Shown: piece by piece, positions 3,541 to 25,169 of the stretch
Position numbering within the stretch: the first letter of the stretch is position 1
How the letters are laid out: each line of letters begins with the position of its first letter
Source: Candidatus Latescibacterota bacterium
Lineage (GTDB): Bacteria; Latescibacterota; UBA2968
Direction: 5' to 3'
Length of the DNA: 25,169 nt
Assembly (NCBI GenBank): GCA_038279365.1
Contig: JAYODI010000030.1
Location: 32,164 to 57,332 of the forward strand
Program-made: the position numbers and the translations under genes
The notes under the pieces: model-generated
The model's input: only the letters and a program-made list of their open reading frames with translations
What the model was told of the DNA's origin: nothing
Databases searched by the model: none

Positions 3541-3627
3541 TTCTTCTCTCCTCGGGAACAGGTGGAAAACAGCAAGAACAAGAATAACTGAGCGATTCCA
3601 TATTCAGAGGTTTTCGAATCGACGCAG

Positions 3628-4950: not shown

Positions 4951-4991
4951 GTATGATTTTCTCCTCAGATAGTGAATGCTTATGACATCCG

Positions 4992-5151
4992 GATCAGGGT
5001 GACGCTGATCGATCCACCCTGAGAGGCAATTATTGTTCGCTCTGAAACCCGGCGCTTCGCGCGGGGACCAAAAGGCTCACGATAGACGACGGCGCTCCGC
5101 ACCTGTCTAACCGGCTTCGCCGGGAGTCGTTTATTGGATAGACTCAGACAG
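4992..5151 (-). promoter_or_regulatory. Structured intergenic leader upstream of the FadL-family gene
   Basis: Several short stems: 5103-5108/5146-5151, 5124-5128/5141-5145, 5111-5115/5119-5123 and 4994-5001/5015-5022, plus mutually exclusive alternatives. No known family recognised. Confidence 0.4.
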
Positions 5152-5207
5152 TTTCGCGCATGCAGTTTCTAATAGAATCCCTCCTCTATGGTGTTATCGT
5201 CTCGATA

Positions 5208-6644: not shown

Positions 6645-6659
6645 CCCCGGTTTTAAGAT

Positions 6660-7325: not shown

Positions 7326-7392
7326 TTTATATATCTCCCATTGAGAATGTTGGGGACTCTTGCGGGATGTTTTCTGCCTTGAAGAAGGCCTG

Positions 7393-8049: not shown

Positions 8050-8070
8050 GCGATTCTTTCTGTGTGGTGG

Positions 8071-9480
8071 TCAGGCTGCCTCGAAACAGGCGTGGAATCC
8101 GAGGTGAATGGGCGAATTGAGTTCTAACATGGCCACCGGTCCGTTTGCCACATTGAAGGCGTCGAAAATGGCAAAGTAGCTCTGGATTTTCTCGGCATCC
8201 AGCATCTGGCAGATGATGGCGCCTTCTTCCCCTTTGGGGTTACCCACAAAAACGGGTTCGCCACCCAAATAGTGGTTTGGCAAAACTTGGTACATATCCT
8301 GCGTGCCATTCCAATTGAGATGAACGAGCCGATCAAAAAATTTGCGTCCCGGTTTAGCGGTGTTGCCAATACCCAGCACCCAAAAATCTTCACAGCGCTG
8401 AGCAGTTTTGCGACCATCTATTGTAGGAAAGTCGCACATATTGTTGTAGCTCAATGTATGTTGTTCGGTGATTTCACATTGAGATAAGTTGATCTTCAAA
8501 CGAAGTGCACGGGCTTCGCGAACATCAGAAAATAAATCGGGAATAATTTGATATTGATCATATACGGGCTGGTCCAATTCAATCATGTCAATGATGAGGC
8601 TGTCATCCTCTTCAAAGGCATGGGTCAAATGCAAGCAGTAGTTTTGCCCAATAGAAAAGGAGGCAATTTCTTCTCCCGTTTCGCAAGAAATAATGAGTAA
8701 ACGGCTTCCGCGTTCTGGCTGCCAAACAAGTGCATCCATCAGCGGTTGCCCGTCGGACAGGAATTTGTCCATATCCAGTATATAGGGGCTTAAATAAAAT
8801 ATTGCATAGTGTTTGCTAAGCGCAAAGTCATGAATCGAGCATGGTGATTTGAGCGGAAACCGCTTGCGATAAATAAGACGGCCATCCGATCCAAAACGAT
8901 AAAAATTCAGCATGGGGTGGGTGGGTGAAAAAGCGATGCCAAAATTGAACATGTCCCCAGTGTTGTGATCAAATTTGGGATGTGCAGAAAAAGGACTGAC
9001 CCTATTGAGGCGTTTCCCAAAAGTATAGAGACCTCGTGTTTCAAGGGTGATGGGGTCAAGTTCATAAGGCACCCCCTGTTCGCCAAATGCCAAAAGTGTA
9101 TTGGCAAACGGATAGACACTCACATTAACCGGCGAAGCCAGCGCAATTCCACGAATGAGTTGATCACCGTCAAAAGCCGTGCCAAATGTACGGTAGAGCG
9201 GGCGCCCCGCTTCGGCTTCATCAACAAATTTCTGACTGCGCACAAAGCGGTGTGTAACGTGTACCTCACCTTCTGAAAAAAGGAGGGAACAGACCATGCC
9301 ATCGCCATCTAACCAATGCCGATATCTCAAGTTGCCATATACAAAACGCGCCGGGCCATTTAGATAATAGGTCCCCCGAATGTACTCTGGGATTTCACCC
9401 ATAATCTGGTCAATTTTGTAACTGTCTTCATGCACATCAAGCATAAAGATGCGTTCCAGCATGGAAGCGTGATTCTCCAT
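8071..9480 (-). CDS. Carotenoid cleavage dioxygenase / lignostilbene dioxygenase (RPE65 family)
   Basis: GTYYLNGP, HWLDGDGM and NVSV motifs. Four candidate Fe-ligand His in FSAHPK, SIHDF, CLHLTHAFE and LGFHACF, plus EPVFV. Confidence 0.93.
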   Translation of the reverse strand: MENHASMLERIFMLDVHEDSYKIDQIMGEIPEYIRGTYYLNGPARFVYGNLRYRHWLDGDGMVCSLLFSEGEVHVTHRFVRSQKFVDEAEAGRPLYRTFGTAFDGDQLIRGIALASPVNVSVYPFANTLLAFGEQGVPYELDPITLETRGLYTFGKRLNRVSPFSAHPKFDHNTGDMFNFGIAFSPTHPMLNFYRFGSDGRLIYRKRFPLKSPCSIHDFALSKHYAIFYLSPYILDMDKFLSDGQPLMDALVWQPERGSRLLIISCETGEEIASFSIGQNYCLHLTHAFEEDDSLIIDMIELDQPVYDQYQIIPDLFSDVREARALRLKINLSQCEITEQHTLSYNNMCDFPTIDGRKTAQRCEDFWVLGIGNTAKPGRKFFDRLVHLNWNGTQDMYQVLPNHYLGGEPVFVGNPKGEEGAIICQMLDAEKIQSYFAIFDAFNVANGPVAMLELNSPIHLGFHACFEAA

Positions 9481-9556
9481 CTTGAGGTCCCGTTGGTTGC
9501 TACATCTGAAAAAACAACACAGTGCATAATATTCTGCTTTGACTATGTTGTTTTGA

Positions 9557-11311
9557 TTAATTCACCGACACGTTTTCGGGGTTGTGTGTTTTGGCTTCAC
9601 GAAATTTTTCCATACCATCAGGGCAAAATGACCATTGATAAGGCACATCAGAGCCTCTACAAATTTCATAATATTGTCGAATGGCTTCAACATCAAATTC
9701 AAAATGGCTAAGATCAATGGCTTTAATAAATGCCTGATTGGTCAATACCGATTTGTCCTCGAGTACAATTGAACACATGTAGGTTAAGAAATAACGTGCC
9801 AACTCAGAAAGGCTTTCGACCTGGCTTTCCAAAACTTGGCGCGCTTCTTCAACAGTGACGCCAACTTGGTAGAACGTTTTTTCTGCCGTCTTGAGCGGTT
9901 CGACTTGGGTGAAATCGTGAAAAATGGGATCAGCAAAAGGTTCGCGATGCTGTTTTTTCCATTGGTAAAAAGCACTGATAAATTGTTGCAAGTTTTTGTT
10001 GATGGGCCCCAACACAGAAAAGTGCTTAAAAAACGACAAAACAAATCGACGATCTGCACACAAATCATTAATGAAAGGAAAAACGAAGAAGCTGAAATAG
10101 ACAGCGAGCTCCCAAGTATATTTGATGGAAAAAGCTTCCTGATCGCCCAATGCATCGTAACTGATGGCATAAGTAGGTAACAAAGACTCGTAAATAGATC
10201 GCACCATCAACTCATAAAAATTGCATTTGCTTTCTAATTCTTGAACATCGTCCGTTTTGATGGCATCCACAATTAAGGTATTGTGAAATGCTATAAAATC
10301 ACTTCCGGGGCTATAGAGGGGATCGGTAAACCGGCCGGCTTCACCCGACATAGCCCAGCGCGCCTTGTTAATTGTTTGTCGGCACCCATGAGAAAATGAC
10401 TTATAAGAACTCTTCGCCAAAATTTTGCGATTGGGCAGGTCGCGTTCAAAAAGCGGAAACCGCGCACAAAGCCATTTGATCAATTTTTCGGGTGTATTGA
10501 CTTCTTTATGATCCACAAGCTTGTTGTCGTAGACCAATCCCAAACTGGTGATACCTTGAAGCGGAATAACCCAAAACCAAAAACCTTCACCCATGAAATG
10601 ATTGGTAGCCTGCCAAGCGGGGAGATGCCCAAGATGCATTCTATCGCGTTTTAAACGACGTTCTGTGCGTGACAGATCCGTTAACCTGTCAATATCGACC
10701 AATCCGTCTACCCAAAAGAATGTTGAACCATGATCGATGGGGTTTGTTTCCTGTAATGCCATCTGACGTGCCAGCACCTTGATGCGCCCCGACGTATCAA
10801 CAACCCAAGCAGTTGAGAAGCTTTTTTGCTGCTCCTGATATGTAAAGGTAATCTGGTGCGGGCCTTCTTCCGACAGCTTCACGTCGAGATCTGATGTGGG
10901 CGTCATCAGCGTAAAATTGTCGAATGTGCGATTGCGGCGCAACAGTTCGGCCTCAATTTTGTTTCGGTCAAGTTGATAACATGGAATATTGGAAAAGGTT
11001 CGAATATATGCATGCGAGAAATCCTCGAAATTGCGATTTTCGCGACCCGCGCTTCCCCAATAGAAACGCAGGTTGTATTTCATAAAATGCTCACGGAAAA
11101 GATATTCTTCCATGTCTAACACCTTGCCCAAATAATACCCACCAACCTGTACCAGTGATTCGCCGACCTTCTGTAACTTAGGTGGAATTTCTTCTCGGCG
11201 ATCAATCAGCAATATCCGTTTGTCGGTCTCCAAAAGCAACTGGTGAGACAGCGTGAGGCCTGCCAGACCTGCACCAATAATAATGACGTCATAATCTTCT
11301 GTGTTTTGCAT
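9557..11311 (-). CDS. Flavin-dependent halogenase-like FAD enzyme (tryptophan-halogenase superfamily)
   Basis: DVIIIGAGLAG (GxGxxG), KVGES, a candidate catalytic Lys in FMKYNLRF, the WxWxIP signature (GFWFWVIPL) and GEAGRFTDPLYSPG. Start re-called to ATG 11311 (MQNTEDYDV); the ORF track extends to a TTG at 11374. Confidence 0.82.
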   Translation of the reverse strand: MQNTEDYDVIIIGAGLAGLTLSHQLLLETDKRILLIDRREEIPPKLQKVGESLVQVGGYYLGKVLDMEEYLFREHFMKYNLRFYWGSAGRENRNFEDFSHAYIRTFSNIPCYQLDRNKIEAELLRRNRTFDNFTLMTPTSDLDVKLSEEGPHQITFTYQEQQKSFSTAWVVDTSGRIKVLARQMALQETNPIDHGSTFFWVDGLVDIDRLTDLSRTERRLKRDRMHLGHLPAWQATNHFMGEGFWFWVIPLQGITSLGLVYDNKLVDHKEVNTPEKLIKWLCARFPLFERDLPNRKILAKSSYKSFSHGCRQTINKARWAMSGEAGRFTDPLYSPGSDFIAFHNTLIVDAIKTDDVQELESKCNFYELMVRSIYESLLPTYAISYDALGDQEAFSIKYTWELAVYFSFFVFPFINDLCADRRFVLSFFKHFSVLGPINKNLQQFISAFYQWKKQHREPFADPIFHDFTQVEPLKTAEKTFYQVGVTVEEARQVLESQVESLSELARYFLTYMCSIVLEDKSVLTNQAFIKAIDLSHFEFDVEAIRQYYEICRGSDVPYQWSFCPDGMEKFREAKTHNPENVSVN

Positions 11312-11374
11312 GGTTTTATGCTCTAAATGATGAATGGTTATATGTTCCAACAGGAATCCATTACAACTGCTCAA

Positions 11375-12628
11375 TTACGAACTTTTTCCTTCTATCACCC
11401 AATCAGGCAGCGCATCGGCATCGAGCCAATTGGAAATTTGCCGCCAAGTGCGCAGTGAACCCAAGAGTGTTTGATAGTGCTGCATCGAATGTTGTGTGAG
11501 AAATCCTTTGTAGAGCCGCTCTTTTCGCACATCTAATTTTTCGCCAATCTGGCCACCTGTCACAGCATTCAAAAAGTCTAAAGTAGGAATCGTAGGGTCC
11601 ACATTTTCGGCTTTGAGCGGCATGTCATCAAGGATATGTTTAATGGGTTTAAACACACGAGACGTCATGCCAAATGACATAAAATCGGCCAGACCAAAAC
11701 TCCAATTGACCGGATCGAAACGCAGATTCATAATTTTTTCGGGCTGGTCAGAAACAAAGGTCATCATCAACCGCACTTCACCCGTGTCCATAACCTTAAA
11801 ATTGATGGTTTGAAACGCAGCACCAAACTCGCCTGGCCCGTAGGCAAATGGGCCTCGGTGTGGGTTTTTGACAAAGGCATAACCAAAGCCGTATTCTCCC
11901 AACACCCCCGGCTGCGGGTTATCAACATTGGTAATGAACTCAGGTGTTAAGATCAAATAGGTCGATTCTTTGAGCGGCATGGTCACAGATGGAGAATCAA
12001 CACCCAAAGGTTGCATGGTCACGCTAAAATCAAAAACCTGAAGATTGAGTACGATCCATTCATACGTTTTGCCAATTTCCCTAAGGTCAACAATCTGCTG
12101 TGCGGTTTCTTTGTCAAATTTGCCAATTTCCCCCGTATCGGCCAATTTGTAATAAACCTGAGAAAATCCCATGCCTTTGCGCTGAATATTTTCTTTGGGA
12201 CTCATCAAAGTCTGCAAAAATTTGGGCAGATGACTGGGTCCAACGATCTTCTCTGGCAAACGAAAATCACTGACACGCAAAAAGTAATGAAGCACAAATT
12301 CTTTAATTTGTTCACAGGTCCATTCGACCGATCGGGCTTTTGCATCTCCCGATGCTTTGGGCTGGTCGTAAAACAGCTCGTCACGCACCCCCATTACGGG
12401 CATGATTTTGTTATTTTCCAGTTTGGCTTTGCCAAAAAAACCAAAACTTTTTTCTGGGCGATGCAGGGTGTGTACCAAGTCAAATCGCTCAGAAAACCCA
12501 TCGCTGGTATATGCCTCCTGCCACCATGATTTGAGCGCACGTCCATCAGACAAAAACCCATCCAAAGTCTTGAGTATTTGCTGATCTTCTTCTGTCATAC
12601 GATCTATAATTGGTGTTTTTTTCGTCAT
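11375..12628 (-). CDS. Hypothetical protein (417 aa)
   Basis: Long ORF in the operon orientation with an AAGGG RBS. No family motif recognised. Confidence 0.75.
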   Translation of the reverse strand: MTKKTPIIDRMTEEDQQILKTLDGFLSDGRALKSWWQEAYTSDGFSERFDLVHTLHRPEKSFGFFGKAKLENNKIMPVMGVRDELFYDQPKASGDAKARSVEWTCEQIKEFVLHYFLRVSDFRLPEKIVGPSHLPKFLQTLMSPKENIQRKGMGFSQVYYKLADTGEIGKFDKETAQQIVDLREIGKTYEWIVLNLQVFDFSVTMQPLGVDSPSVTMPLKESTYLILTPEFITNVDNPQPGVLGEYGFGYAFVKNPHRGPFAYGPGEFGAAFQTINFKVMDTGEVRLMMTFVSDQPEKIMNLRFDPVNWSFGLADFMSFGMTSRVFKPIKHILDDMPLKAENVDPTIPTLDFLNAVTGGQIGEKLDVRKERLYKGFLTQHSMQHYQTLLGSLRTWRQISNWLDADALPDWVIEGKSS

Positions 12629-12676
12629 TGTCTAAACACCCTTCTGTATGTGTTGTACACGTTTACCTATGCACAT

Positions 12677-12910
12677 CTATTTGTCTTTTTGGTGAAACAC
12701 GGCCAAGCGTTTTTTCACGCCGTTGCTGATGTCTCCTGCCTTTTCCATCATTTGAGCCATCTGCATCACTTTTTGCATGGCTTCAGGTGGTGTCAACCGA
12801 CCCTTTTTTAAGGTGTAGACCCCATACAGATAGAGCGTAATAAAGTCGTTGAGCATCGACCCATCAAACAGGGGTTCTTCAATTTTTTGTGGTTCCTCTT
12901 GCTCTGACAT
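12677..12910 (-). CDS. Small hypothetical helical protein (77 aa)
   Basis: Strong GGGAGG RBS 4 nt before the ATG. It fills the gap between two long genes in the same orientation. Confidence 0.7.
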   Translation of the reverse strand: MSEQEEPQKIEEPLFDGSMLNDFITLYLYGVYTLKKGRLTPPEAMQKVMQMAQMMEKAGDISNGVKKRLAVFHQKDK

Positions 12911-12968
12911 GGTGCCTCCCCAAATGGGCTTAATAGATACTCATTGCGCGTTTAAAAGTTTACCCAAA

Positions 12969-15900
12969 TTACGGACGTGCCTTTTCTTCATCGGTGGGCT
13001 TGGTGTTGACATTTGAAACAAATCCGCCGTTGATCTGGATGCTGACATAAGGCGTTTTACGCGACGTTGATATTTGTGCCGTCACCAATTGAATACTTTC
13101 CTGTCCGGCTTTTTCCCAAATGCCATAACCCGAAAAGCTGACCGTGTCGTAGTTGCCTTCTTTGAGTGTTGATTGACGCGAGTTGGTGAAGCTCACCCAG
13201 GTCAGGCTGTTCAACTTGAACCTGCCATCCTGACTGTGGTTGGTGTAGACAAATGACGCATCTCGGTTTTCTGGGTCAGATGGAATGTCGAAGCTGTATG
13301 AAAAATGTTCACCCGTTGAGGCAACAACGTCTTCGGCCTCACCTTTTTTGACAAAATCGGTGGGCGCATCGTTGTGCATGGCTTGTAGCCACATAAAGGG
13401 ATCCAGTGTCGAGTCAGAGAGCACTTTGAAACCCGAACCGAGATTGGGAGATGGGAAGTAGAATTCGCCGGGATAAACCACACGAACCTCACCGTCAAAA
13501 CGGAAGACGGTTTCACCCTGTGGACCTTTTTCAAAACAGGCAGGGCCTCTAAAAAAGAACGACGATTTGGGTGTGCGTGGTTCAACGCGAATAAGTGCAA
13601 AAAACAAGTTTTGGCTAATCAAGCCGCGCTGCAAAACGTTGGCGAGTACTTTGCCCGTTTTGAGGTTGACCATGCCAACCGACAAATCGAACGGGTCATC
13701 AATAGAAAACACATTGTTGAGAAAATAGGTTTGTTGTGGAAAGCGCAAAAACTCGTTATGCCCATGGGGTCCTGGCAGCAATGGCATATTGGCTTCAGAA
13801 CCAGGCAATTTTTCACTGAGAGGATTGTCTTTGAGCGCATGCCCCAAAAACCCCCCCGGATTGAGTTTGGTGATGGCAATGGGAACAGAGTCGCCACAGC
13901 GCTGACCAAATTGCACCATAATACGCCCCAGCAAATGCGAGCGGCCTTTTCCCGTACCACCCAGTTCGGGCAGGTCGAGCGTAAAAAGATCACCAAAACT
14001 GGTATTGTGTGTGTAAATCGTATATTCTTGCAGCGTATTTTCAGGCAATTCGGGTAACAAGTCTGATTCTTCGAGCGGTTCGGGTGCCTTGGTGCTCAAA
14101 TGCAAATGAGGATGCAGGGTCGTACCACGTGCCGGAATATGAGCATACTGCTGTGTGGGACTGCAAAATGGCAATGGAAACCGAATCGGATCGTCGAGAC
14201 CCGGTACCATACCCAATGGCACAAAAGTGCTACCGTAAAATGAAAAATCCAGTTTGCCATCGTTGCGTTGCTCAAATTTGGCCCAGGCCGATCCATACAT
14301 GCCCGGAAACTGGATGGGCACATCGGGGAACTTGGGGTTGACACGAACAAGTGAGAAAAGTGCTGTGTTGAAAAAACGCACGGCCCAATCTAAGTTGGTG
14401 ACTTCGCCCGTTTCCAGGTTCAGATCACCAGATGAAATTATCTTGGGATCATCTTTGACCTGATTGTGCAGAACGGGCAATTTAAAAAATGTGGGGGCTG
14501 TCATAACGCCATCATCACCCACAAGGCCCGTTTCGCCACCATGATAGACCTCAAAGTGCGTGATCTTGTCTTTGGGTTCCGAAAACTTAAAACGCAAATA
14601 ACCATTCAAATGGCTATCGGTCATAGCCAAGCCCCCAAAGAGCAGATCTCCAGAAGAACCAAAGTCAGCGTCTATTTTGTTTTTGCAATTCACCGGGCGA
14701 ATGGCATCGCCAAAATAGCTGGCCTCTTTGCTCAGTGGCAAGATTTGCTCGCCCCCAGGCGGCAATTGGAGCATCAAAGATGGATCATCGGCCACGACAA
14801 CCTCGTTTGCCGGTTCTTCAGGCATTTCAGGCGGGCTAAGCGGTTCGGGCATTTGTTCAACCCTACGCGGAAGATCTTCCATGGCCAGCACAGGGCCTTC
14901 GGCCTGATGATAATCTGCAACCGCATCGGTCGCTGCAATGTGAGACACATCAATCAGTGGAAAACTGGCTTCATAAACTTCATTGAGACGCCTGAGCACA
15001 TCGTTGGCAATAAGCGCATGACCCGTGGCACCTGGATAATAGCCATTGAGCGAGTAAAAACCACCCAAGAAATCGGCAGTAAGTGTTTGGCCATGTTCAC
15101 GGATGCCTGATTCGGCCAAATGGTGGATAAACCCGTGAAGATCATAGACCAACGCACTGTGTGCATCGGCCTTTTCGGAAATGGCCCGATTGAGGGCTGA
15201 AACACATGTGTGAACAGTGTTGGCCATTTCACCTGAGAGAATCGATCCTTCGGGCAGTGTTGAGATCTTGCCAGACAGAAACTGGCAACCCATTTCCATA
15301 AGCCCATTAACCGTGATCCGATCGCCCTCTGCAAGGTCGTACGTATTTTGAATAATGGCTGGATCAACCTTGAGATTGAGAGCTGCCGATTCTATGCTTG
15401 AAAAATAGGCCGTGTCCATCGGATCGGGTACGGTCATAACCAGAACCTGAGCGCCTTGTTCGCGAAATGTCGTGATTAGTTTTTCATAACTTTCAGCAAA
15501 AGCTGCACCATCGGGCAGTGCATCACTATTCTGGCTAATAGCCGCTTCCAGTACTTCGTGAAATCCGAGGGCCAACAATACAAATGAAGGGTTGCGCTGC
15601 TGAGCATATTCAAATTGTGTGAGACACGCCCCCGTCCCATTGCGAAAACCATCAAGCCCCAAAATGAGGTTGGCAGATGTTTGTTTGACATCGTCGCGAT
15701 GAATAATTGGCAATTGGGGGCGTAAGTGGATGGCATCTGAAAGTGTAAAACCGGGTACAGACAAATTGCACAGCGCATCGGCCTCTACATTTTCCATAAT
15801 GGTGGTTTGAAAGTGTGCGGGCAAAACAACCGGCAACTCACCAAAACCAACAGGGCTACCAAAACCAGGCGGCTGTACCAAAGGTTGCTCAAACCGAGTT

Positions 15901-16346
15901 TTTATTTGCCGGGCCATCTGTGCGGGAAAGCTGTCTTTTTGAAATGCTTTATTGAGCCCAAAATCCACCAAGCCTGCCGCCAGACCCTCGCCCAACACAA
16001 CAAAGGTGCTGGCGTCTAATTTGCCGGGGTTGACATCTTGTGGCCGATCGGCAGACATTGGCACACTGCTGGTATCTTGTTGTGTGTCTTGTGTTTTGTT
16101 ATCCGATGCCTTTTTAAAAACTTTATCGACAACATTGCGCTGCAAACCATCACCGGTCTTGAAAACGCCTTTAATCGTATCACCCATTTGATTTTCTGTG
16201 ACTTTTGTGACGGAGTCTATGGCTGATGCAACTTTTTTCTGAGAGGAATCGATATCTTTAGACGACAAGATATTGATCATCTGTTTGACACCAAACATGG
16301 GCAATGCCATCGAAAAACTGACCACCGACTTTATAAATTTTCGCAT
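12969..16346 (-). CDS. Large multidomain protein: shared N-terminal module + inactive SGNH/GDSL-like domain + two tandem beta-rich domains
   Basis: AGGAG RBS. FVVLGEGLAAG matches block I (normally GDSLxAG), CNLSVPG block II, and GGFYSLNGYYPGATGHALIAN block V (normally DGxHP). A Pro/Glu-rich linker and an internal duplication follow. Confidence 0.8.
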   Translation of the reverse strand: MRKFIKSVVSFSMALPMFGVKQMINILSSKDIDSSQKKVASAIDSVTKVTENQMGDTIKGVFKTGDGLQRNVVDKVFKKASDNKTQDTQQDTSSVPMSADRPQDVNPGKLDASTFVVLGEGLAAGLVDFGLNKAFQKDSFPAQMARQIKTRFEQPLVQPPGFGSPVGFGELPVVLPAHFQTTIMENVEADALCNLSVPGFTLSDAIHLRPQLPIIHRDDVKQTSANLILGLDGFRNGTGACLTQFEYAQQRNPSFVLLALGFHEVLEAAISQNSDALPDGAAFAESYEKLITTFREQGAQVLVMTVPDPMDTAYFSSIESAALNLKVDPAIIQNTYDLAEGDRITVNGLMEMGCQFLSGKISTLPEGSILSGEMANTVHTCVSALNRAISEKADAHSALVYDLHGFIHHLAESGIREHGQTLTADFLGGFYSLNGYYPGATGHALIANDVLRRLNEVYEASFPLIDVSHIAATDAVADYHQAEGPVLAMEDLPRRVEQMPEPLSPPEMPEEPANEVVVADDPSLMLQLPPGGEQILPLSKEASYFGDAIRPVNCKNKIDADFGSSGDLLFGGLAMTDSHLNGYLRFKFSEPKDKITHFEVYHGGETGLVGDDGVMTAPTFFKLPVLHNQVKDDPKIISSGDLNLETGEVTNLDWAVRFFNTALFSLVRVNPKFPDVPIQFPGMYGSAWAKFEQRNDGKLDFSFYGSTFVPLGMVPGLDDPIRFPLPFCSPTQQYAHIPARGTTLHPHLHLSTKAPEPLEESDLLPELPENTLQEYTIYTHNTSFGDLFTLDLPELGGTGKGRSHLLGRIMVQFGQRCGDSVPIAITKLNPGGFLGHALKDNPLSEKLPGSEANMPLLPGPHGHNEFLRFPQQTYFLNNVFSIDDPFDLSVGMVNLKTGKVLANVLQRGLISQNLFFALIRVEPRTPKSSFFFRGPACFEKGPQGETVFRFDGEVRVVYPGEFYFPSPNLGSGFKVLSDSTLDPFMWLQAMHNDAPTDFVKKGEAEDVVASTGEHFSYSFDIPSDPENRDASFVYTNHSQDGRFKLNSLTWVSFTNSRQSTLKEGNYDTVSFSGYGIWEKAGQESIQLVTAQISTSRKTPYVSIQINGGFVSNVNTKPTDEEKARP
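13380..14745 (-). repeat. Two ~215-aa internal domain repeats in the 1125-aa protein (about 14095-14745 and 13380-14030)
   Basis: Aligned motifs: SYFGD/TSFGD; SHLNG/SHLLG; GDLNLETGEV/GMVNLKTGKV; LFSLVRVNPKFP/FFALIRVEPRTP; AKFEQRNDG/ACFEKGPQG; TLHPHL/TLDPFM. Confidence 0.8.
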
Positions 16347-16404
16347 GGAACACTCCTGTCACATCAAATGCATGTGATGAGTTGAAAATAAACTTCGAAA
16401 AACA

Positions 16405-17694
16405 TCAATGAGAAGTAGCAATCAAATTGAGCGGCTGGTTTTTAAACAACTGTTCCAATTGACCGTGTTGTTGAATGTCCTGGGCATAATGTGATACGTG
16501 TTGGGTCGGATTGAGAATGAACGCCTGCCAACGTCGTGCCAGAGCTTGACTGGCAAAACGAGGGTTATGCTTGGCAAAACCCTCAAAATAAAGATCTCCT
16601 CCAGTGACCTGTGTCCATACCACCAACGCAGCTGCAACCCCCTGAGCAAAAGCCGTGTTTTCCTCTAACCGATCGCCATGACGAGCGACAAATTGGGCCA
16701 CAATTTCAGGGTGACGCATGTTGACCAGCACAAGAGGCCACGCCAACCCAGAGATCACATTTTCGCGAGCCAGATCATGGGGGGGGCGCAAGGGCATCAG
16801 CGCACCTGCACGCCAAGATATACTTGAGCGTGGCACAAAATAGGCGCCACGACCGACACCATGCCAAAAAAAGGCGAGCCAATCGGGATTCATAATAGAT
16901 ATTTGGTGGTCAAAACGCAGGCGCAGTGCGGGCAAAAATGTTTGCGCAACAAGACCAAGGGCTTCAAACGCAATGCCAAAACACCCAGGCTGAGCATTTT
17001 GGGTGCACAAATCAGCAAAACGGCGCAATGCATCGTCTATTTGAGCCGTAGATGCATTGGGGGTGAGCGTGGCAAAACACCGTTTGGCCAACGACAAACC
17101 CATCCCAGCATGAAGCGGCACAACAGCGTGGCTGGGCAAAGGCTCAGTCGTAAGGAGTGCTTGTGGTTCTCCCATTTGCCAAGCGCGTTCGGCAACATAG
17201 TGACCCACACCTTCGGTGGCCCACACCGATATGTAAGGATCTAGACCTGCCGCTTTTTCAATGAATACGCCTAAGGGTGCATCTGATTGAGGCGGAATGT
17301 TCAGCACAGAATCAACATATCGAAAGGTGCCAAAACTTTCGAGTTTGTTGGTAAATTCCCGCCAAGCCAACCCATTGCCCATGCCTGGTAGATGTGTGCC
17401 AAATTTTTCGGTCAGACCACACATCAGATCGAACCCTGTTTTGATCACATGCCCCGACTGCAAGCCGTCTTGTGTCATAAGGGCCAACATCGGATCGATG
17501 GTTTCAGCGGTGAGACGATCGCCCGTTTTGAAGGTTTCGCGCATGAGCCGACTTAACTGCGCTTCAGCCCGTGCCAACATATCTTCAACCGGTTTGGACG
17601 TGGTGGGTTGCACCACGGCATCGGCAAGATGCTTCATGCCATACAGTGACATGGTAATCGGCAAGCGCAGCAGAGATTTTGCCAAATGGCGCAT
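16405..17694 (-). CDS. Hypothetical helical protein, paralog of 18748..20100 (possibly DUF1702-like)
   Basis: Starts immediately after the preceding stop (TAG-ATG). Motifs shared with its paralog: LAWREFTNKL, WATEGVGHY, LHAGMGL, FEALGL, FFWHGVGR, GLAWPLVLVNMRHP. Confidence 0.8.
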   Translation of the reverse strand: MRHLAKSLLRLPITMSLYGMKHLADAVVQPTTSKPVEDMLARAEAQLSRLMRETFKTGDRLTAETIDPMLALMTQDGLQSGHVIKTGFDLMCGLTEKFGTHLPGMGNGLAWREFTNKLESFGTFRYVDSVLNIPPQSDAPLGVFIEKAAGLDPYISVWATEGVGHYVAERAWQMGEPQALLTTEPLPSHAVVPLHAGMGLSLAKRCFATLTPNASTAQIDDALRRFADLCTQNAQPGCFGIAFEALGLVAQTFLPALRLRFDHQISIMNPDWLAFFWHGVGRGAYFVPRSSISWRAGALMPLRPPHDLARENVISGLAWPLVLVNMRHPEIVAQFVARHGDRLEENTAFAQGVAAALVVWTQVTGGDLYFEGFAKHNPRFASQALARRWQAFILNPTQHVSHYAQDIQQHGQLEQLFKNQPLNLIATSH

Positions 17695-17958
17695 CTATTT
17701 GGATCCTTCAGATTGGTTGTTTACACCGTTCCACGAAAAATGCCAAACAGCCCAGCGGATAATCTGACTGTCGGTAAATGGAACACCATGTTGGGCTTCG
17801 AGGCCTGTTCGAATATCATTTAAGATTTCACGATCTGTTTCAGAAAGTGCCACCATCAAACCCGTATCTTGCGAAACAGGCAATACGTCTGTCATGGGCA
17901 GGTCAATTTTTTGAATGCCACGCCCTGCTGGTAAGCGTTTTTTTGGGGCATCAGACAT
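17695..17958 (-). CDS. Small ParA partner protein, putative ribbon-helix-helix with an N-terminal basic GRG motif
   Basis: Start overlaps the parA stop (ATGTCTGA). N-terminus KKRLPAGRGI; C-terminal strand-helix-helix pattern LMVALSETDREILNDIR...TDSQIIRWAV. Confidence 0.7.
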   Translation of the reverse strand: MSDAPKKRLPAGRGIQKIDLPMTDVLPVSQDTGLMVALSETDREILNDIRTGLEAQHGVPFTDSQIIRWAVWHFSWNGVNNQSEGSK

Positions 17959-18700
17959 GAGACAAAATCTCCTGCGCTATATCGATAAAAGCACGGGCAC
18001 CCGTTGACCGCGGTGCATAGACAATAACAGGTTGACCGTTTGCCGAAGCCTCATCAATGGCCACATTAACAGCGACATATTTTGTGGTTTTTTTCCCAAA
18101 GTGTGTTTTAATTTCCGACAAAATCTCATTGGCCAAAGCGGTTCTGCGATACATCATCGGAATAACATGGGCAATATCGAGGTCTGGGCGACGAAATCGC
18201 TTTTGAACCGTTTCAATGGCCCACAACACTTGTGATGTACCTTCTAGGGCAAAATGCGCCACCTGAATAGGGAGAATGATATGATGTGCGGCAACCAGCG
18301 CATTGGTGGTAAACAATCCCAAACGAGGAGGACAATCAATAAACACAAATGCATATTGATCTTCAAGGGCATCCAGCGCAACCGAAAGTGCCATTTCTTT
18401 TCCGGGTGCACCACTCATTTCAGCATCGTCAAGGCGCAAATTTGACGGGGCCAAATCCAAATTTTTTATGGGGGTGGCCATAATCACATCTTGGAGTGCT
18501 ACCGTTCCAAGCAACACCTCGCGCATCGTTTGAGGCAATTCGTAGGGCTGAATGCCCAAATGGATACTGGCATTCCCTTGAGGATCGAGATCCACCAAAA
18601 GGGTTTTGTGGCCCTTTTTGGCAAATGCAGCAGCCAGGTTAACAGCGGCGGTGGTTTTTCCAACACCGCCTTTGTTGTTGGCAATGGCGTAAGTGATCAT
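17951..18700 (-). CDS. parA: ParA/Soj family ATPase
   Basis: Deviant Walker A NNKGGVGKTT, A' VDLDPQGN, Walker B FIDCPP, and EAxxxGQP. The ATG at 18700 (MITYAIAN) is preferred to the TTG at 18715. Confidence 0.95.
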   Translation of the reverse strand: MITYAIANNKGGVGKTTAAVNLAAAFAKKGHKTLLVDLDPQGNASIHLGIQPYELPQTMREVLLGTVALQDVIMATPIKNLDLAPSNLRLDDAEMSGAPGKEMALSVALDALEDQYAFVFIDCPPRLGLFTTNALVAAHHIILPIQVAHFALEGTSQVLWAIETVQKRFRRPDLDIAHVIPMMYRRTALANEILSEIKTHFGKKTTKYVAVNVAIDEASANGQPVIVYAPRSTGARAFIDIAQEILSHV

Positions 18701-18717
18701 AGAGAAATAACCCAATA

Positions 18718-18732
18718 GATTGTTTTACAATC
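18718..18732. promoter_or_regulatory. Palindrome GATTGT-N3-ACAATC, candidate operator upstream of parA
   Basis: Perfect 6-3-6 inverted repeat in the short gap between the 450-aa gene and parA. Confidence 0.4.
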
Positions 18733-18747
18733 CATTATCAGTGGTTT

Positions 18748-20100
18748 TTACTGATCGCTCAAAATTTGATCGATGAGCGCAGAAAGATCGCGATAACAAA
18801 AAATATCTCCCAGACGCTGATGTTCTTTGAGAATAGGATAATATTTCCGCAATGCAACTTCGCACGATTGCTGCACCAAACTGTTCCACTTGTCGGCAAA
18901 TGCGGCACCAAATCCATCGGGTGTTGTCATATACAGGTTGTCAATAAAAGGCGCATCAGGTGTGGTGTCTTGTCGCATCATCAATCCAGACATCACACCG
19001 TTTTGAAATCCGTCGCGCTCGTCTTCGTCTTCGACATTTAAATGATGGAGCAAATTGCCAAGAATATGTGGATGACGAACATTAACCATCGTCACACCCC
19101 ACGATAAACCTGCAAAAGCATTTCGCCTTGCCACACGCTCGGTGGCTTCGCGCCGGATCATTTCGATAGGGTGCCAGATCGCGCCATAACCGGGCAAAAA
19201 GTTGATGGGAGAAAAATAGATAGAACGACCCACACCGTGCCAAAAATATCCGTAGGCTTCTGGGTCCATTTCTTCTAACAAATGGCTAATAATCTGAACC
19301 ATTTCATCGGGCCGCGTGTCTCCATAAAATGCCCCACTGCGCGAGATCAGCCCCAAAGATTCGATAGCCGCGCCCTCATATCCGGGTTTTGAATTTTCTT
19401 TGCACAGCAAAATAATTTGTTTGAGCGCCTGGCGAATATCAGAATGTGAACTCAAGTGGTTAATGCCCCGCAAAAAATGCTGGGCAATGGCCATGCCCAC
19501 CCCCGCGTGAAGCATTGTCAAACTGCCATCCCTCACACCTTCAGTCTCAGTGAGCGCATTTTGCGGCACCATGTTGCGCGTCCAAAACGTATCGCCATAA
19601 TAATGTCCCAATCCTTCAACAGCCCACAACGATGGATATTCATCAAGTGCATAGGCACGTTCGACAAGTTCCGACAATGGCGGGTAGGGGGGTGCATCAG
19701 GCAGGTTGAGCGTTTTGGGTACTTGATAGACCAAATTAAACACCGTTAATTTGTTGCGCAATTCCTGCCAAGCCAAACGCCCATCTTTACTTGGCCCAAG
19801 GCTTTTGACCATTTCCAAAGACCAGGCCATAATTTCCGAAGTTGTTTTGGCGGTGCGACGTGGGTCGAGCATGTTCAACATCATATCGGTCACTTCTCGC
19901 TGCAAATCATCACCCACTTGAAACATGCTTTGCATCATATCACCCAGTTGTGACCCCGTTGCCAGTGTGGCGGCATCAAAGGCTTCGGTTGCCGTTTGGG
20001 TTGGCTGTGTCGGATGGGTAACAAGATTGATGATCTGTTTGGCACCAAACAGGGGCACCGCCCAAGCCAGACTTAAAGTGGATTTGGTGAATTCGCGCAT
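18748..20100 (-). CDS. Hypothetical helical protein with shared N-terminal module (possibly DUF1702-like)
   Basis: GGGAGG RBS. Recurrent Gly-centred helices WAVEGLGHY, LHAGVGMA, IESLGL, FWHGVGR and FAGLSWG. Paralog of 16405..17694. Confidence 0.8.
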   Translation of the reverse strand: MREFTKSTLSLAWAVPLFGAKQIINLVTHPTQPTQTATEAFDAATLATGSQLGDMMQSMFQVGDDLQREVTDMMLNMLDPRRTAKTTSEIMAWSLEMVKSLGPSKDGRLAWQELRNKLTVFNLVYQVPKTLNLPDAPPYPPLSELVERAYALDEYPSLWAVEGLGHYYGDTFWTRNMVPQNALTETEGVRDGSLTMLHAGVGMAIAQHFLRGINHLSSHSDIRQALKQIILLCKENSKPGYEGAAIESLGLISRSGAFYGDTRPDEMVQIISHLLEEMDPEAYGYFWHGVGRSIYFSPINFLPGYGAIWHPIEMIRREATERVARRNAFAGLSWGVTMVNVRHPHILGNLLHHLNVEDEDERDGFQNGVMSGLMMRQDTTPDAPFIDNLYMTTPDGFGAAFADKWNSLVQQSCEVALRKYYPILKEHQRLGDIFCYRDLSALIDQILSDQ

Positions 20101-20159
20101 CTATACACCTCCCGTGTAGGGGCGGATGGTTGACAGCTAAAAACTATCAAAAAAGCGAG

Positions 20160-21782: not shown

Positions 21783-21798
21783 TTTGTTCCTAAACAAC

Positions 21799-23457
21799 TC
21801 ACATCAATTTGCGAAGGGTGTTGATCAACAAAAGCCCTGTGACACCCATGACCATGAGTTCAGCTGTAAAAAAGTTGATACCGATAACGGAGGGTTCTCC
21901 TGTTACAATCATAAGTATAGGCATCACCAAAAACACAACGGACAACTGAAGCGCGCGTGATCGCGTCGAGCGATCCGATTCACCGTCTTTGTCACCAATT
22001 TCTATGGGCAAATCTCCCGATGCCAAGCGCTGAATGAAACGGCTGGCACGATAGGCACCATCGCGTAACAAATTGCCACTGGCCTGGGTCATGGCCATCA
22101 AACGGTTGGGCGACATCATTTGCTCAAATGCCTGTGCTTTGAGAAAGCGACTGCACACGGTTTCAAGATAGTGCCCCACATCAAACCCGGGGGAAAAGCG
22201 GGTGATTAACCCATCGATGGCAATAGAGGATCGGATATACTTAATCACATCACGTTCTGGCCAGATATTGGTTTTACGAGACAACAAAAGCATATCGAGC
22301 ATAACCAGCGTGAAGTTTTTTTGAATGCGCGTTTTAGTACCCTGGCCATCATACCATTCTTTGGCATATTCGCGCAGACCCTGGTGAAATCCTTCAAGAT
22401 CGGACGTTTCATCCCATTCGGTCACATGTAAAAATGCTTCAGACATGCTGTCCAAATCTCCTTGGGTATACGCCAACGTCATTTTAATAAGATGCTGACG
22501 CGAATAATTGCTCAGCACCCCCGTAATACCAAAATCAACATATCCAACAATGTTGCCTGGCAAAATGATCAAATTGGCCGGATGCAAATCGGCGTGAAAC
22601 AACCCAAAACGAAAAGCATCTCCCAAAAAATTGTCAATAATGTGTCGTGCAAAAGCTTCTGGTTCAAACCCCTTTTGTTTCAATTGACCAACACGCACAT
22701 GATCATCAGCTTCAAATGCCCGTAAAAAAGTCAGTACCGTAACACCTTCTAAAAATTCAGTAACCAAAATGCGACGGGTGGTGTATTCCCAATACACCGC
22801 GGGCACATGTTCCCAGGCATTTTCTCGGGCGTTGCTTCTCATTTGGCCCATATAACGCGCTTCAAAACGATAGTCGAGTTCTTCATTTGTCCACGATACA
22901 AACTCACTCATCGGTTCAATCATCCAATAGAGCGGTTTCACACGCAACGCACGAATCAAGCGAATGGTTGTGCTCATCAAACTGACATCGCCTGCAAACT
23001 CGACCTCGACCGCGGGCCGACGCACTTTAACAGCCACTTTGCGACCACTGATTGTCGCTATATACACCTGCCCAATGGAGGCCGTTGATATCGGGTTGGG
23101 ATCAAAAGTATCAAATACTTCTTCGGGTGTTTGACCCAAATCTTCTTGAAAGGCCTGCTCAACAAAACGGTAGGGATAAGGGGCAATGCGATCAAGCAAA
23201 TCGGCCAGTTCACGGCAATATGCAAAGGGCAAAATATCGGGCTGTAATGCCAACATTTGACCAAATTTTATAAAGGTGCCACCCATCTCTTCAAGGGCGA
23301 TACGCAATCGTTTGGGCCCCGATAAGGCAACCTCAGGAAAGCGATTGACCAACCACTTTCGACGCATCATATACGGCCCGACCAGTTGATAACATAAGTG
23401 CCGCCCAACAACACCGATAAGGTGTCGCATGCGTCGCAGGTTTTGCCAAAATACCAT
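21799..23457 (-). CDS. UbiB/ABC1 (AarF) family atypical kinase, intact, with two C-terminal TM helices
   Basis: GGTFIKFGQ (KxGQ), TASIGQVY, VAVKV, ELDYRFEA, FHADLHPANL and DFG are present. The start overlaps the upstream stop (TGATG). Confidence 0.95.
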   Translation of the reverse strand: MVFWQNLRRMRHLIGVVGRHLCYQLVGPYMMRRKWLVNRFPEVALSGPKRLRIALEEMGGTFIKFGQMLALQPDILPFAYCRELADLLDRIAPYPYRFVEQAFQEDLGQTPEEVFDTFDPNPISTASIGQVYIATISGRKVAVKVRRPAVEVEFAGDVSLMSTTIRLIRALRVKPLYWMIEPMSEFVSWTNEELDYRFEARYMGQMRSNARENAWEHVPAVYWEYTTRRILVTEFLEGVTVLTFLRAFEADDHVRVGQLKQKGFEPEAFARHIIDNFLGDAFRFGLFHADLHPANLIILPGNIVGYVDFGITGVLSNYSRQHLIKMTLAYTQGDLDSMSEAFLHVTEWDETSDLEGFHQGLREYAKEWYDGQGTKTRIQKNFTLVMLDMLLLSRKTNIWPERDVIKYIRSSIAIDGLITRFSPGFDVGHYLETVCSRFLKAQAFEQMMSPNRLMAMTQASGNLLRDGAYRASRFIQRLASGDLPIEIGDKDGESDRSTRSRALQLSVVFLVMPILMIVTGEPSVIGINFFTAELMVMGVTGLLLINTLRKLM

Positions 23458-25118
23458 CAGGCCGTCGTCTCTTTAAAAATTGAACCCCAAAAAATGTGTT
23501 TGCGACGTTTGACCATATCATCCAAAGCTGCTTGCATTCGCATTCGAATATCTTGTGAAATTTCTTTGACGATAATAGGATCATCGGCAGCCTCGGGCCC
23601 ATACTGCTTTTCAATATGTATCGGTTCGAGAAAATGAATATGCCATTTTGTGGGTAAAGGTATGGGCAATAAAGGAAACGGGGGTGCAATGGGAAAACAG
23701 GGCCAAAGCGAGAAACGTTTCCACCATCGCCAATTGAGCTTTGCAAAAATGGGGAAAATCTCGGGTGTACCTGCTGTGACAAAGGGCACAATCGGAGCCT
23801 GGTTGCGCAAGGCTATTTTGACATATTCGTCACGGCCAAATTTGCCCAGTTTGTACGCATCGCGATAATACGTGAAGGCACCGTGAATACCTTCGGGATA
23901 CATGCCCAATACTTCATCGCGTCCAAGCACATAATCGGCATTTTCCTGACACGCGATCATGCCACCCAATTTGGTCATAAAATTAAACTGAAACGGAAAT
24001 TTAATGAGGGTAGGATGGATCAAAAATCGCGTGTATCGACGACATTCGGTGACGATTAAGAGAAACGTTGTAACGGCATCCAATGGCATGAAACCACGGT
24101 GTACACCCGTTAAAACTGCCCGCCCATGAGATGGAATGTTTTCAATGCCCTTGTGTTCAATACGCCAATACACATAACGCAAAAACGGGAAAAGGATGCG
24201 CCGATATGCTTCGACGTATTTTTTGTCGAGGCCATAAGCATCAAAATCCGTTGTGTTGGGCAAAAATGCTGGCTTGTGATTTTGTTGCTCTGCAAAGTCA
24301 AATAGAGCTTCTGCCGTGGTTTGCTGAGGTTGAAACCCCCATTCGGTTTTGATCTTTTGGTTGGACACTGTCCAGGCATATCGTACAAAATCCAGTTGAT
24401 CGGCCGGTCGCCTGCGCACCAAACTCTGAAGGAATTTGGGAGCAGTCAAACGACGCGTTCTGGCCATTTTAAGTGCTTTGCGCAAAGGCATTGCCCCATC
24501 GGGAGCAACATTATAGATGCCTCCTGCACTTTTTTGAATGGCCAAACAGATCGCTTCAATCCAATCTTTGGGAGAAAGCAATTGTAACAGCGGGTCATGC
24601 CCGGGTAGCGTAATGGAAAGACCACCATCGAACAAACGATTGAAGTAAGTATTGCCATGAGGAACCAATACAGGCGCCGGACGCAAAAGTGTGAGTTTTG
24701 CTTTTTGAAATGCGCTTTCTGCAATTTCTTCTAAAGCAATCCATTGTTGTGCAATGGCGTTTTTACCACTGTAGGTGCGTGGGCGCGTTTCGGGCAAATA
24801 ACCAATATTGTGTGGTCTTGGGCCATATATTTCAGCGCTGGAAATAACAATTGCATGACCGATATGTGCTTGTGCAGCTCCATTTAAAATGTCTTTGGCT
24901 TGTGCCAAATTTAGGGTGCCGCGTTTGGGATGCACGGGTGGAAAATAAATCAGTATATCTGCTTGTACGTTAAACATGGATGCATCGTCATGTGACCAAT
25001 GGGTGTGATGTGAACACGTCACCCCTGAGGCATTTTCCAAACGCGCTACCAGAGCTTGTGAAATGACATGATTTTTTTTGTTATCAGGATGGGTGTCTAT
25101 AACTAAAACCTTGGCCAC
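23457..25118 (-). CDS. Fusion of a degenerate extended-SDR (epimerase-like) domain and a PlsC/LPLAT MGAT-like acyltransferase
   Basis: GTG start with AGAGG RBS. The N-half has ISSAEIYG, LLRPAPV, GIYNVA and KxEWGFQP. The C-half has DAYGLD, GIENIP, VHRGFMPLD, YPEG, APIVP and PLPTKW. Confidence 0.88.
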   Translation of the reverse strand: MAKVLVIDTHPDNKKNHVISQALVARLENASGVTCSHHTHWSHDDASMFNVQADILIYFPPVHPKRGTLNLAQAKDILNGAAQAHIGHAIVISSAEIYGPRPHNIGYLPETRPRTYSGKNAIAQQWIALEEIAESAFQKAKLTLLRPAPVLVPHGNTYFNRLFDGGLSITLPGHDPLLQLLSPKDWIEAICLAIQKSAGGIYNVAPDGAMPLRKALKMARTRRLTAPKFLQSLVRRRPADQLDFVRYAWTVSNQKIKTEWGFQPQQTTAEALFDFAEQQNHKPAFLPNTTDFDAYGLDKKYVEAYRRILFPFLRYVYWRIEHKGIENIPSHGRAVLTGVHRGFMPLDAVTTFLLIVTECRRYTRFLIHPTLIKFPFQFNFMTKLGGMIACQENADYVLGRDEVLGMYPEGIHGAFTYYRDAYKLGKFGRDEYVKIALRNQAPIVPFVTAGTPEIFPIFAKLNWRWWKRFSLWPCFPIAPPFPLLPIPLPTKWHIHFLEPIHIEKQYGPEAADDPIIVKEISQDIRMRMQAALDDMVKRRKHIFWGSIFKETTA

Positions 25119-25169
25119 ACGAATTCCTCTGATAAGTCTTTAGACCTGTGCGTAAACATCTACAATATA

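Follow-up and report, generated by a model that had tools for sequence, protein, structure and literature searches.

We analyzed a stretch of 25,169 nucleotides from Candidatus Latescibacterota bacterium (GenBank assembly GCA_038279365.1, contig JAYODI010000030.1, positions 32,164 to 57,332 of the forward strand); this whole stretch is called the window throughout. The genes discussed here are all encoded by the minus strand and form a tight, operon-like array. In the order of transcription, these genes code for an acyltransferase fusion, ABC1 kinase a, ABC1 kinase b, L450, a ParA-type ATPase, a protein of 87 amino acids (aa), L429, L1125, a protein termed hyp417, a flavoprotein and an RPE65 oxygenase. 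L450, L429 and L1125 are named after their lengths of 450, 429 and 1125 aa and carry a common N-terminal module. A first-pass annotation, made from the letters alone, had proposed a module of about 75 residues on proteins with unrelated bodies. It had read the module as an amphipathic address tag or hetero-oligomerisation domain, loosely like phasins or lipid-droplet-binding helices. The three minus-strand open reading frames (ORFs) and their homologous N-termini, here called leaders, were found where this annotation had placed them, and the module extends over about 78 residues.

The leader alignments were compared with shuffled controls. Smith-Waterman scores of the three pairs were 28, 12 and 13 standard deviations above those of 2000 shuffles per pair, and the observed score was reached by none of the 2000. 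In BLASTP, a single segment of L1125 aligned significantly with L450, pairing residues 1-109 with 1-105 (65 bits, E 5e-15, 31% identity); all remaining segments had E >= 0.55. With L429, residues 1-87 of L1125 aligned to residues 1-80 (E 2e-5). Beyond the module, BLASTP thus showed the body of L1125 to be unrelated to the other two. The assumption of unrelated bodies therefore holds for L1125, but not within the remaining pair, since L429 and L450 are full-length paralogues (29% identity across 448 columns, E 8e-58). As a consequence, the window shows the module on two body types and not on three. At both starts inspected, a Shine-Dalgarno-like GGAGG or AGGAG lies 7-8 nucleotides (nt) 5' of the ATG. 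A hidden Markov model (HMM) of the three leaders was run against the 36,303 ORFs of the 6.0-Mb genome and matched these three only (E <= 1e-33; next match E 0.19). The three copies in this genome are all adjacent.

Relatives were collected in several steps. An initial word-indexed search, with the three leaders as queries, returned 16 proteins with the same three architectures. Scanning one genome per species yielded 13 loci, five in three Candidatus Latescibacterota metagenome-assembled genomes (MAGs) and eight in MAGs of Acidobacteriota (Thermoanaerobaculia, Holophagales and unclassified). From these loci an alignment of 24 leaders, A3, was built and used as a HMMER profile against 1.84 billion cluster representatives. 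The search gave 937 proteins at E <= 1e-3, 633 of them at E <= 1e-10. Statistics on position, size and conservation refer to the best 150 of the 937, those on hydrophobicity to 149. For 145 of the 150, the module begins within the first three residues. Most carriers (138/150) are shorter than 250 aa, and the commonest form is a small protein consisting of the module and a Gly/Ala/Pro/Ser-rich, apparently disordered tail. A Trp-Gly-Pro motif is found in the last 40 residues of this tail in 71 of the 138 short relatives. At the end of stand-alone module proteins (P0049-P0096 and others) it takes the form of a conserved Gly-Trp-Gly-Pro-(Met/Val/Ile)-Pro-like (GWGP) motif, counted in these 71 relatives and in 30 of the 75 short ORFs that the loci contain; it looks from its sequence like a second short linear binding motif. 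The 180-aa relative P0053 carries two tandem module copies. In the window's own genome, the leader HMM found no stand-alone module protein among the 36,303 ORFs.

Longer carriers have L450-like helical-repeat bodies, L1125-like (SGNH-like) bodies, alpha/beta hydrolase domains and, in one protein, a fasciclin domain. The module-tagged alpha/beta hydrolases pass the NCBIfam haloalkane-dehalogenase model (330 and 368 bits, cut-off 241), and one hydrolase of this type has an extra ABM monooxygenase domain. The L450-type body belongs to a family of 557 relatives, none of which has a functional name. Among the best 120 of these, the module is present in 94 and absent from 26; some of the latter are fragments, and about 11 are full-length, measure 360-372 aa and start with another short N-terminus. 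Acidobacterial L429 orthologues mostly lack the module as well; in metagenome loci it is present on one of 12. Bodies thus occur with and without the module, which indicates that it was gained and lost on them. The portability suggested by the first-pass annotation was therefore confirmed on a wider range of partners: the module stands alone with a disordered tail or precedes haloalkane-dehalogenase-type, fasciclin, SGNH-like and helical-repeat bodies, the last of which also exists leaderless. The domain itself appears to be undescribed. Among the 24 leaders no Pfam family recurred at E <= 10, the module had no NCBIfam match, PDB sequences gave no module match below E 0.37, and the protein cluster Atlas returned 'hypothetical protein' clusters only, mostly from Acidobacteriota. 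The literature searched contained no description of the module or of the gene cluster.

In the best 150 relatives the first part of the consensus reads M-R-[ED]-[LF]-T-K-S-x-x-S-F-S-W-A-M-S-L-F-G-x-[QRK]-Q-x-x-N-L-x-x-P, followed by about 8 variable residues. The second part reads A-x-x-A-F-D-x-V-T-x-A-x-E-x-Q-L-G-x-x-L-x-x-x-F-x-A-G-D-x-L-Q-R-x-x-V-D-x-x-F. The pattern proposed from the three leaders was borne out and sharpened, with R2, K6, S7, W13, F18, G19, Q22, G63, D64, Q67 and D72 each conserved at 91-99%. Three parts can be distinguished: a helix-Gly-helix, MRELTKSxLSFSWAMxLFGxKQxxNL (residues 1-28), a variable linker and a strongly amphipathic helix, QLGxxLxxxFxxGDxLQRxxVDxxF (residues ~50-78). 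The idea of an amphipathic tag applies to the second helix, in which the helical hydrophobic moment is 0.55-0.65. It does not extend to residues 1-28, which are aromatic-rich and moderately hydrophobic with a helical moment of only about 0.1-0.35. Covariation was analyzed by mutual information with average product correction. It revealed i,i+4, i+7 and i+8 pairs in residues 56-77, consistent with a helix, and no convincing contact between segment 1 and segment 2; with about 280 effective sequences and subfamily structure the power was low, so that the latter is not evidence of absence. AlphaFold2 (AF2) placed helices at residues 2-18, 20-28, 36-48 and 50-77 of the L450 leader, and similarly in the L1125 leader, at a predicted local distance difference test score (pLDDT) of 32-49. 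In neither model were the leader helices packed on the body.

We then compared the leaders with known export signals. On the Kyte-Doolittle scale, which is crude and not equivalent to SignalP, the best 10-residue mean was 1.46 (0.98-2.19) in 24 leaders, compared to 2.99 and 2.60 for the evident signal peptides of the FadL-type channel and the type IX secretion system (T9SS)-tail protein encoded in the same window. A 10-residue mean of 2.5 was reached by 0 of 149 relatives. The 19-residue maximum was 0.28-1.36 in these 149, none of which reached the 1.6 taken for a transmembrane signal anchor. Arg is found at position 10, within the hydrophobic stretch, in 13% of relatives. The start M-R-[ED]-[LF]-T-K-S contains a single Arg and differs from the Tat motif S/T-R-R-x-F-L-K. 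With regard to a lipobox, the three window leaders contain no Cys, and Cys was never among the top three residues at positions 1-30 of the 150 relatives. The stretch L17-F18-G19 (82%, 91% and 94% conserved) could fit the small -3/-1 residues of a cleavage site. No signal peptide was seen in the cluster partner proteins. With a hydrophobicity clearly under that of signal peptides and membrane anchors, the module is neither an ordinary Sec, Tat or lipoprotein signal nor a membrane anchor. This agrees with the first-pass annotation, which had seen no convincing signal-peptidase site, Tat RR or lipobox.

The bodies were examined by structure prediction. In the AF2 model of L450, residues ~110-450 mostly have pLDDT values above 80 and form an all-alpha repeat fold, and residues 1-66, 69-80 and 82-91 are below 50. 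Comparison of this model with the PDB gave no Foldseek match at E <= 1e-3 (E >= 0.057), only weak armadillo/TPR-like rows. A structure comparison (VIA) gave a best Z of 5.5, which is within noise for helical proteins, and the L450 profile matched no PDB sequence at or below E 0.76. The L1125 model is weaker, with a mean pLDDT of 49; most 10-residue blocks of residues ~200-420 and 440-470 lie at 60-92. On this confident part of the weak model, eight PDB matches at E <= 1e-3 (3e-4 to 1e-3) point to an SGNH fold. The Foldseek matches were all SGNH or GDSL esterases/thioesterases, e.g. TesA (1jrl, E 4.7e-4, TMt 0.72). SGNH/GDSL enzymes carry Gly-Asp-Ser-Leu in block I, with the nucleophile Ser. 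In L1125 the residues after the first strand (~115-125) read GEGLAAG, which is invariant in 12 of 12 homologues and contains no nucleophile Ser. Judging from its place after the first strand, GEGLAAG would correspond to block I. With GEGLAAG in place of GDSL, the nucleophile is probably missing. The SGNH domain of L1125 is thus, as far as its sequence tells, probably non-catalytic and may only bind lipid as a pseudo-enzyme.

Next, the gene neighborhood was surveyed in metagenome loci. The 25 loci used were 7 kb or longer, and many were truncated, either where the contig ended or at the limit of the 8-kb flank. The survey was seeded with the leader of the short protein, which biases it toward one locus type, and in the high-GC acidobacterial loci genes were assigned by homology-labelled ORFs. 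The canonical order was RPE65, flavoprotein, acyltransferase, ABC1a, short module protein, L450, ABC1b, L429, hyp417 and L1125. The L450 body was present in 22 of the 25 loci, ABC1a in 21, ABC1b in 19, the acyltransferase in 15, L429 and hyp417 in 12 each, the flavoprotein in 11, RPE65 in 9 and L1125 in 4. Acidobacterial versions of the cluster also hold patatin-like lipases and further alpha/beta hydrolases. Five acidobacterial genomes contained 2-5 module copies each, located on one contig or, in one case, on two. The module is system-specific and not a genome-wide signal. Its distribution is patchy: within the window's phylum it was detected in 3 of 168 genomes, which belong to a single genus, and among sampled Acidobacteriota in 7 of 301. 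Locus L001, from a Latescibacterota MAG, is 98-99% identical to the window's locus. Proteins from Tectomicrobia and Zixibacteria MAGs are found among the module-bearing L450 relatives (best 120 of 557). In acidobacterial clusters, we observed the halogenase-like flavoprotein alongside module-tagged hydrolases of the haloalkane-dehalogenase model (L030:6434-8155; L011:10001-11899; P0163, P0179). This combination may hint at halogenated lipid chemistry.

The features of the window are listed in Table 1. Eighteen window ORFs were covered by the Pfam scan. L450, L429, L1125, hyp417 and the 87-aa protein had no Pfam or NCBIfam match, permissive thresholds included. Further Pfam matches of the acyltransferase fusion, DAGAT (E 6e-4) and Epimerase (E 2.5e-3), were both under their cut-offs. 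The flavoprotein has its flavin adenine dinucleotide (FAD)-binding motif close to the N-terminus and matched NCBIfam LodB (E 2e-13) and CmlS (E 2e-10), both far under the family cut-offs (50 bits vs 400). The contig ends with the window, 51 bases upstream of the acyltransferase start.

Table 1. Features of the window discussed in the text (positions of the window, 5' to 3' on the forward strand)
Feature	Position	Strand	Length or best match
Rossmann (epimerase-like) domain fused to PlsC-type acyltransferase	23457..25118	-	Pfam Acyltransferase E 8.5e-9
ABC1/UbiB-family atypical kinase a, C-terminal hydrophobic helices	21799..23457	-	Pfam ABC1 E 2.9e-54, 184 bits (cut-off 22.9)
ABC1/UbiB-family atypical kinase b, C-terminal hydrophobic helices	20160..21797	-	Pfam ABC1 E 3.3e-27, 95.6 bits (cut-off 22.9)
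L450: leader and all-alpha helical-repeat body, family without name	18748..20100	-	450 aa
Leader of L450	19867..20100	-	A3 profile match E 1e-32
ParA-type ATPase	17951..18715	-	Pfam AAA_31 E 5e-52, also CbiA and ParA
87-aa protein, gene overlapping ParA-type ATPase gene	17695..17958	-	no Pfam or NCBIfam match
L429: leader and helical-repeat body, full-length paralogue of L450	16405..17694	-	429 aa
Leader of L429, most divergent copy	17479..17694	-	A3 profile match E 6.8e-25
L1125: leader, linker, predicted serine-less SGNH/GDSL-fold domain (~residues 110-470), large beta-rich C-terminal region	12969..16346	-	1125 aa
Leader of L1125	16113..16346	-	A3 profile match E 6.3e-31
hyp417, conserved cluster protein, unnamed family	11375..12628	-	no Pfam or NCBIfam match
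FAD-dependent oxidoreductase, halogenase/LodB-like	9557..11374	-	Pfam Trp_halogenase E 1.1e-6
RPE65-family carotenoid/stilbene cleavage oxygenase	8071..9480	-	Pfam RPE65 E 1e-98

Downstream of the RPE65 oxygenase gene, Pfam identified two metallo-beta-lactamase (MBL)-fold genes, an aldehyde dehydrogenase, the FadL-type channel and the T9SS-tail protein. The two neighboring MBL-fold ORFs (6660-8049, minus strand) have a listed overlap of 116 nt and align with one and the same region of the Pfam profile. Rather than a frameshift, they are probably tandem paralogues, with the start of the downstream gene called too early. The ParA-type ATPase and the 87-aa gene between L450 and L429 are confined to the window's lineage. 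The 87-aa gene recurs in locus L009, and both genes are absent from locus L008 and from all acidobacterial loci. By eye, the 87-aa protein resembles a ribbon-helix-helix partner, as in plasmid ParA/ParG pairs; the pair could be the remnant of a partition cassette or a positioning system for the assembly. Elsewhere in the genome (G000:C17:109624-111221) two tandem genes of the squalene/phytoene-synthase family were found, which could supply the RPE65 oxygenase with polyprenyl substrate. We also considered hyp289 (485-1354) as a hidden divergent module and rejected it (hhalign probability 0.3%). The GC content is 53-57% in positions 2001-8000, which hold the T9SS-tail protein, FadL channel, aldehyde dehydrogenase and MBL gene, and 44-50% in the remaining window. 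The cluster itself is close to the genome mean of 46.5% and gives no compositional signal of recent horizontal transfer. Short contigs from four salt-marsh metatranscriptome runs matched many parts of 8000-25169 at 99-100% identity. Contigs with 0 differences include the leader-coding segments 19876-20108 (L450) and 16273-16423 (L1125), and some contigs span the ABC1b/L450 and L429/L1125 junctions. This is at most a hint of expression of the cluster; such libraries can contain DNA, and the uncovered parts carry no meaning.

Based on these observations, we tentatively propose, as a plausible reading, that the module is a previously undescribed N-terminal domain which acts as a cytoplasmic co-localisation tag and attaches its carriers to a lipid surface or membrane patch. 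We favor this target because of the strict N-terminal position, the aromatic- and Met-rich helix-Gly-helix together with the amphipathic helix, the partners (lipid enzymes and ABC1 kinases) and the parallel in gene content with plastoglobules and cyanoglobules. The lipid-related guess of the first-pass annotation fits this neighborhood, which comprises the acyltransferase, two ABC1 kinases, patatin and hydrolases. Partners without signal peptide and the N-terminal FAD-binding motif fit a cytoplasmic system. We infer the cytoplasmic location, the lipid binding and the co-localisation role from this combination. In the proposed mechanism, the helix-Gly-helix and the amphipathic helix would together dock the carriers monotopically from the cytoplasmic side. 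As target we envisage a membrane patch or a neutral-lipid body that would be made and regulated by the co-encoded acyltransferase, the two membrane-anchored ABC1/UbiB kinases and the lipases. The stand-alone module protein with its disordered tail, present in most genomes with the system, may serve as coat or scaffold. In the window, the module would take the helical-repeat pair L450 and L429 and the putatively lipid-binding, serine-less SGNH-like L1125 to that site.

Several points weigh against this proposal. The helical moment of residues 1-28 is low, and with the low AF2 confidence the fold of the module is not given by the models. One carrier has a fasciclin domain, a domain type that is usually extracytoplasmic. 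The synteny survey, as noted, leans toward one locus type. A WS/DGAT-type neutral-lipid synthase was not found in the genome, in a search that had no positive control and is uninformative, and we know of no lipid bodies in these uncultured lineages. The strongest argument comes from the polar residues R2, K6, Q22, D64, Q67 and D72, which are conserved at 95-99%. Such near-invariance is unusual for generic lipid-binding helices and, on the sequence level, suggests a specific partner. Together with heptad-like small and aromatic positions (52, 56, 60, 63, 67, 71, 75, 78), these residues are typical of helix-helix interfaces. They argue for the module as a specific protein-protein docking or oligomerisation domain, which would bundle with other leaders and with stand-alone proteins, or bind another cluster protein such as an ABC1 kinase or the helical-repeat body, to form a multi-enzyme complex for hydrophobic substrates, soluble or membrane-attached, with lipid contact being secondary. 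The GWGP motif in disordered tails of stand-alone proteins (71/138), resembling a second binding motif, the two tandem modules of P0053 and the constant co-encoding of the carriers are all in line with such a complex. The low AF2 confidence of the leader would also be expected if the segment folds on binding. A pure oligomerisation domain, however, needs no start at Met1, yet nearly all relatives begin there. Moreover, strong covariation between segments 1 and 2 was not seen (with the low power given above), and the window's genome has no stand-alone scaffold protein. We consider protein docking a close rival of docking to lipid, though the less likely of the two as the primary function; they are not mutually exclusive.

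Two further explanations place the module in export or in peptide maturation. It could be a dedicated signal for export or sorting of a non-classical kind, be it a weak Sec signal that is cut after Gly19 and followed by a conserved pro-region or the tag of an as yet unrecognized transporter, and the carriers would then be periplasmic or extracellular. The strict N-terminus, the basic start with R2 and K6, the hydrophobic stretch of about 12 residues and L17-F18-G19, which could satisfy the -3/-1 rule, would agree with this, as would the fasciclin-domain carrier and the fact that lipases and SGNH-like proteins are commonly secreted. We regard export as quite improbable, given that the hydrophobicity is far under that of both window signal peptides and reaches membrane-anchor level in none of the 149 relatives, that Arg interrupts the stretch at position 10 in some of them, and that strong conservation across phyla is atypical of Sec signals. 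The 2-5 carriers per genome are all in one cluster, their partners are of cytoplasmic type without signal peptides (acyltransferase, flavoprotein, ABC1 kinase domains), and the leaderless paralogues of the L450-type body lack a signal peptide as well. The sole transporter gene of the window is that of the FadL-type outer-membrane channel. Alternatively, the module might be a recognition leader for post-translational modification, similar to NHLP/Nif11 leaders or LodB/QhpG substrates, with the flavoprotein modifying W13 or the Trp of GWGP. A long conserved leader followed by hypervariable tails in the short proteins, the weak resemblance of the flavoprotein to the LodB, GoxB and QhpG maturases and to Trp halogenases, and the 93% conservation of W13 speak for it. 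This explanation is highly improbable: the module matches no leader family in Pfam or NCBIfam and has no Gly-Gly cleavage motif, the window has no peptidase-transporter, radical-SAM or cyclodehydratase gene, the leader sits on large folded proteins of 450-1125 aa, and the flavoprotein matches remain far under their cut-offs.

Returning to lipid-surface docking, we compared the module with systems of known function. Plastoglobules and cyanoglobules hold ABC1 kinases together with a DGAT2-like acyltransferase, a flavin oxidoreductase and carotenoid enzymes, and it is amphipathic helices or hairpins that fix the proteins to them (PMC12223511). The plastoglobule proteome includes CCD4 (PMC5161054). 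Fibrillins (plastoglobulins) and the plastoglobule/cyanoglobule proteome thus offer the case of an abundant structural protein that occupies a lipid-body surface jointly with such enzymes, with attachment by amphipathic helices; the parallel to the cluster studied here is one of gene content alone. In contrast to fibrillins, the module has no PAP_fibrillin or other Pfam match, and the hosts are non-photosynthetic Acidobacteriota and Latescibacterota, from which no observation of a lipid body is known. Fibrillins have a lipocalin-like fold and are not known as an N-terminal tag that several enzymes share. Phasins (PhaP) are similar in being small, helical, amphipathic proteins encoded beside storage-body enzymes. 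The proposed likeness to phasins was not supported on the sequence level, with no Phasin or Phasin_2 match at E <= 10 (24 leaders; three window proteins) or at E <= 0.01 (40 carriers). In contrast to phasin systems, the Pfam scan of the window revealed no polyhydroxyalkanoate synthase, and phasins are not known to occur as N-terminal fusions to enzymes.

Encapsulation peptides of microcompartments likewise are short helical terminal extensions that are common to unrelated enzymes of one cluster and serve co-localisation. They measure about 18 residues and need shell proteins, whereas the module has about 78 residues and also exists as a free-standing protein. A shell-protein family was not among the Pfam matches of the 18 window ORFs. 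NHLP/Nif11 leaders share the conserved N-terminal leader of ~70-80 aa followed by highly variable C-terminal parts, but the module has no match to these families, the window contains no processing or transport genes, and the bodies are large and conserved in synteny. Class I lipid-droplet proteins of the oleosin and GPAT4 type insert as hydrophobic hairpins. The module would resemble them in its helix-break-helix, which is too short or too weak to span a bilayer and, being rich in Phe, Trp and Met, could enter a monolayer; the hydrophobic stretch of the module is much shorter (~12 + 8 residues) and less hydrophobic. In its presumed way of working, the module is most like fibrillin and phasin coats and encapsulation peptides. 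It belongs to none of these, as no profile matched and the window lacks the partner genes that define them.

In summary, the domain family and the conserved gene cluster appear to be new, and the working principle proposed here would be a familiar one. At its most specific, the cluster might encode a plastoglobule-like lipid body or specialized lipid domain in non-photosynthetic Acidobacteriota and Latescibacterota. Such a body would have its own unrelated coat family (module, disordered tail and GWGP), the coat domain would be reused as a portable enzyme tag, and ABC1/UbiB kinases would act as built-in regulators; by analogy with plastoglobules this is conceivable, and we consider it unlikely. 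At least four unannotated protein families are defined by this work: the module, the L450/L429 helical-repeat body, hyp417 and the L1125 body. The first of these remains a new domain family should its target be a protein scaffold and not lipid; it has hundreds of members and is absent from Pfam, NCBIfam and the PDB. Should docking to a lipid surface be correct, the module would be a compact, portable and sequence-defined address tag for a bacterial lipid-associated assembly, and it could be used in engineering to bring enzymes to such surfaces. What ABC1/UbiB kinases do in the cell, and on which substrates, is so far poorly defined. About ten co-linear genes would place these kinases beside their likely clients, which would make their roles testable.

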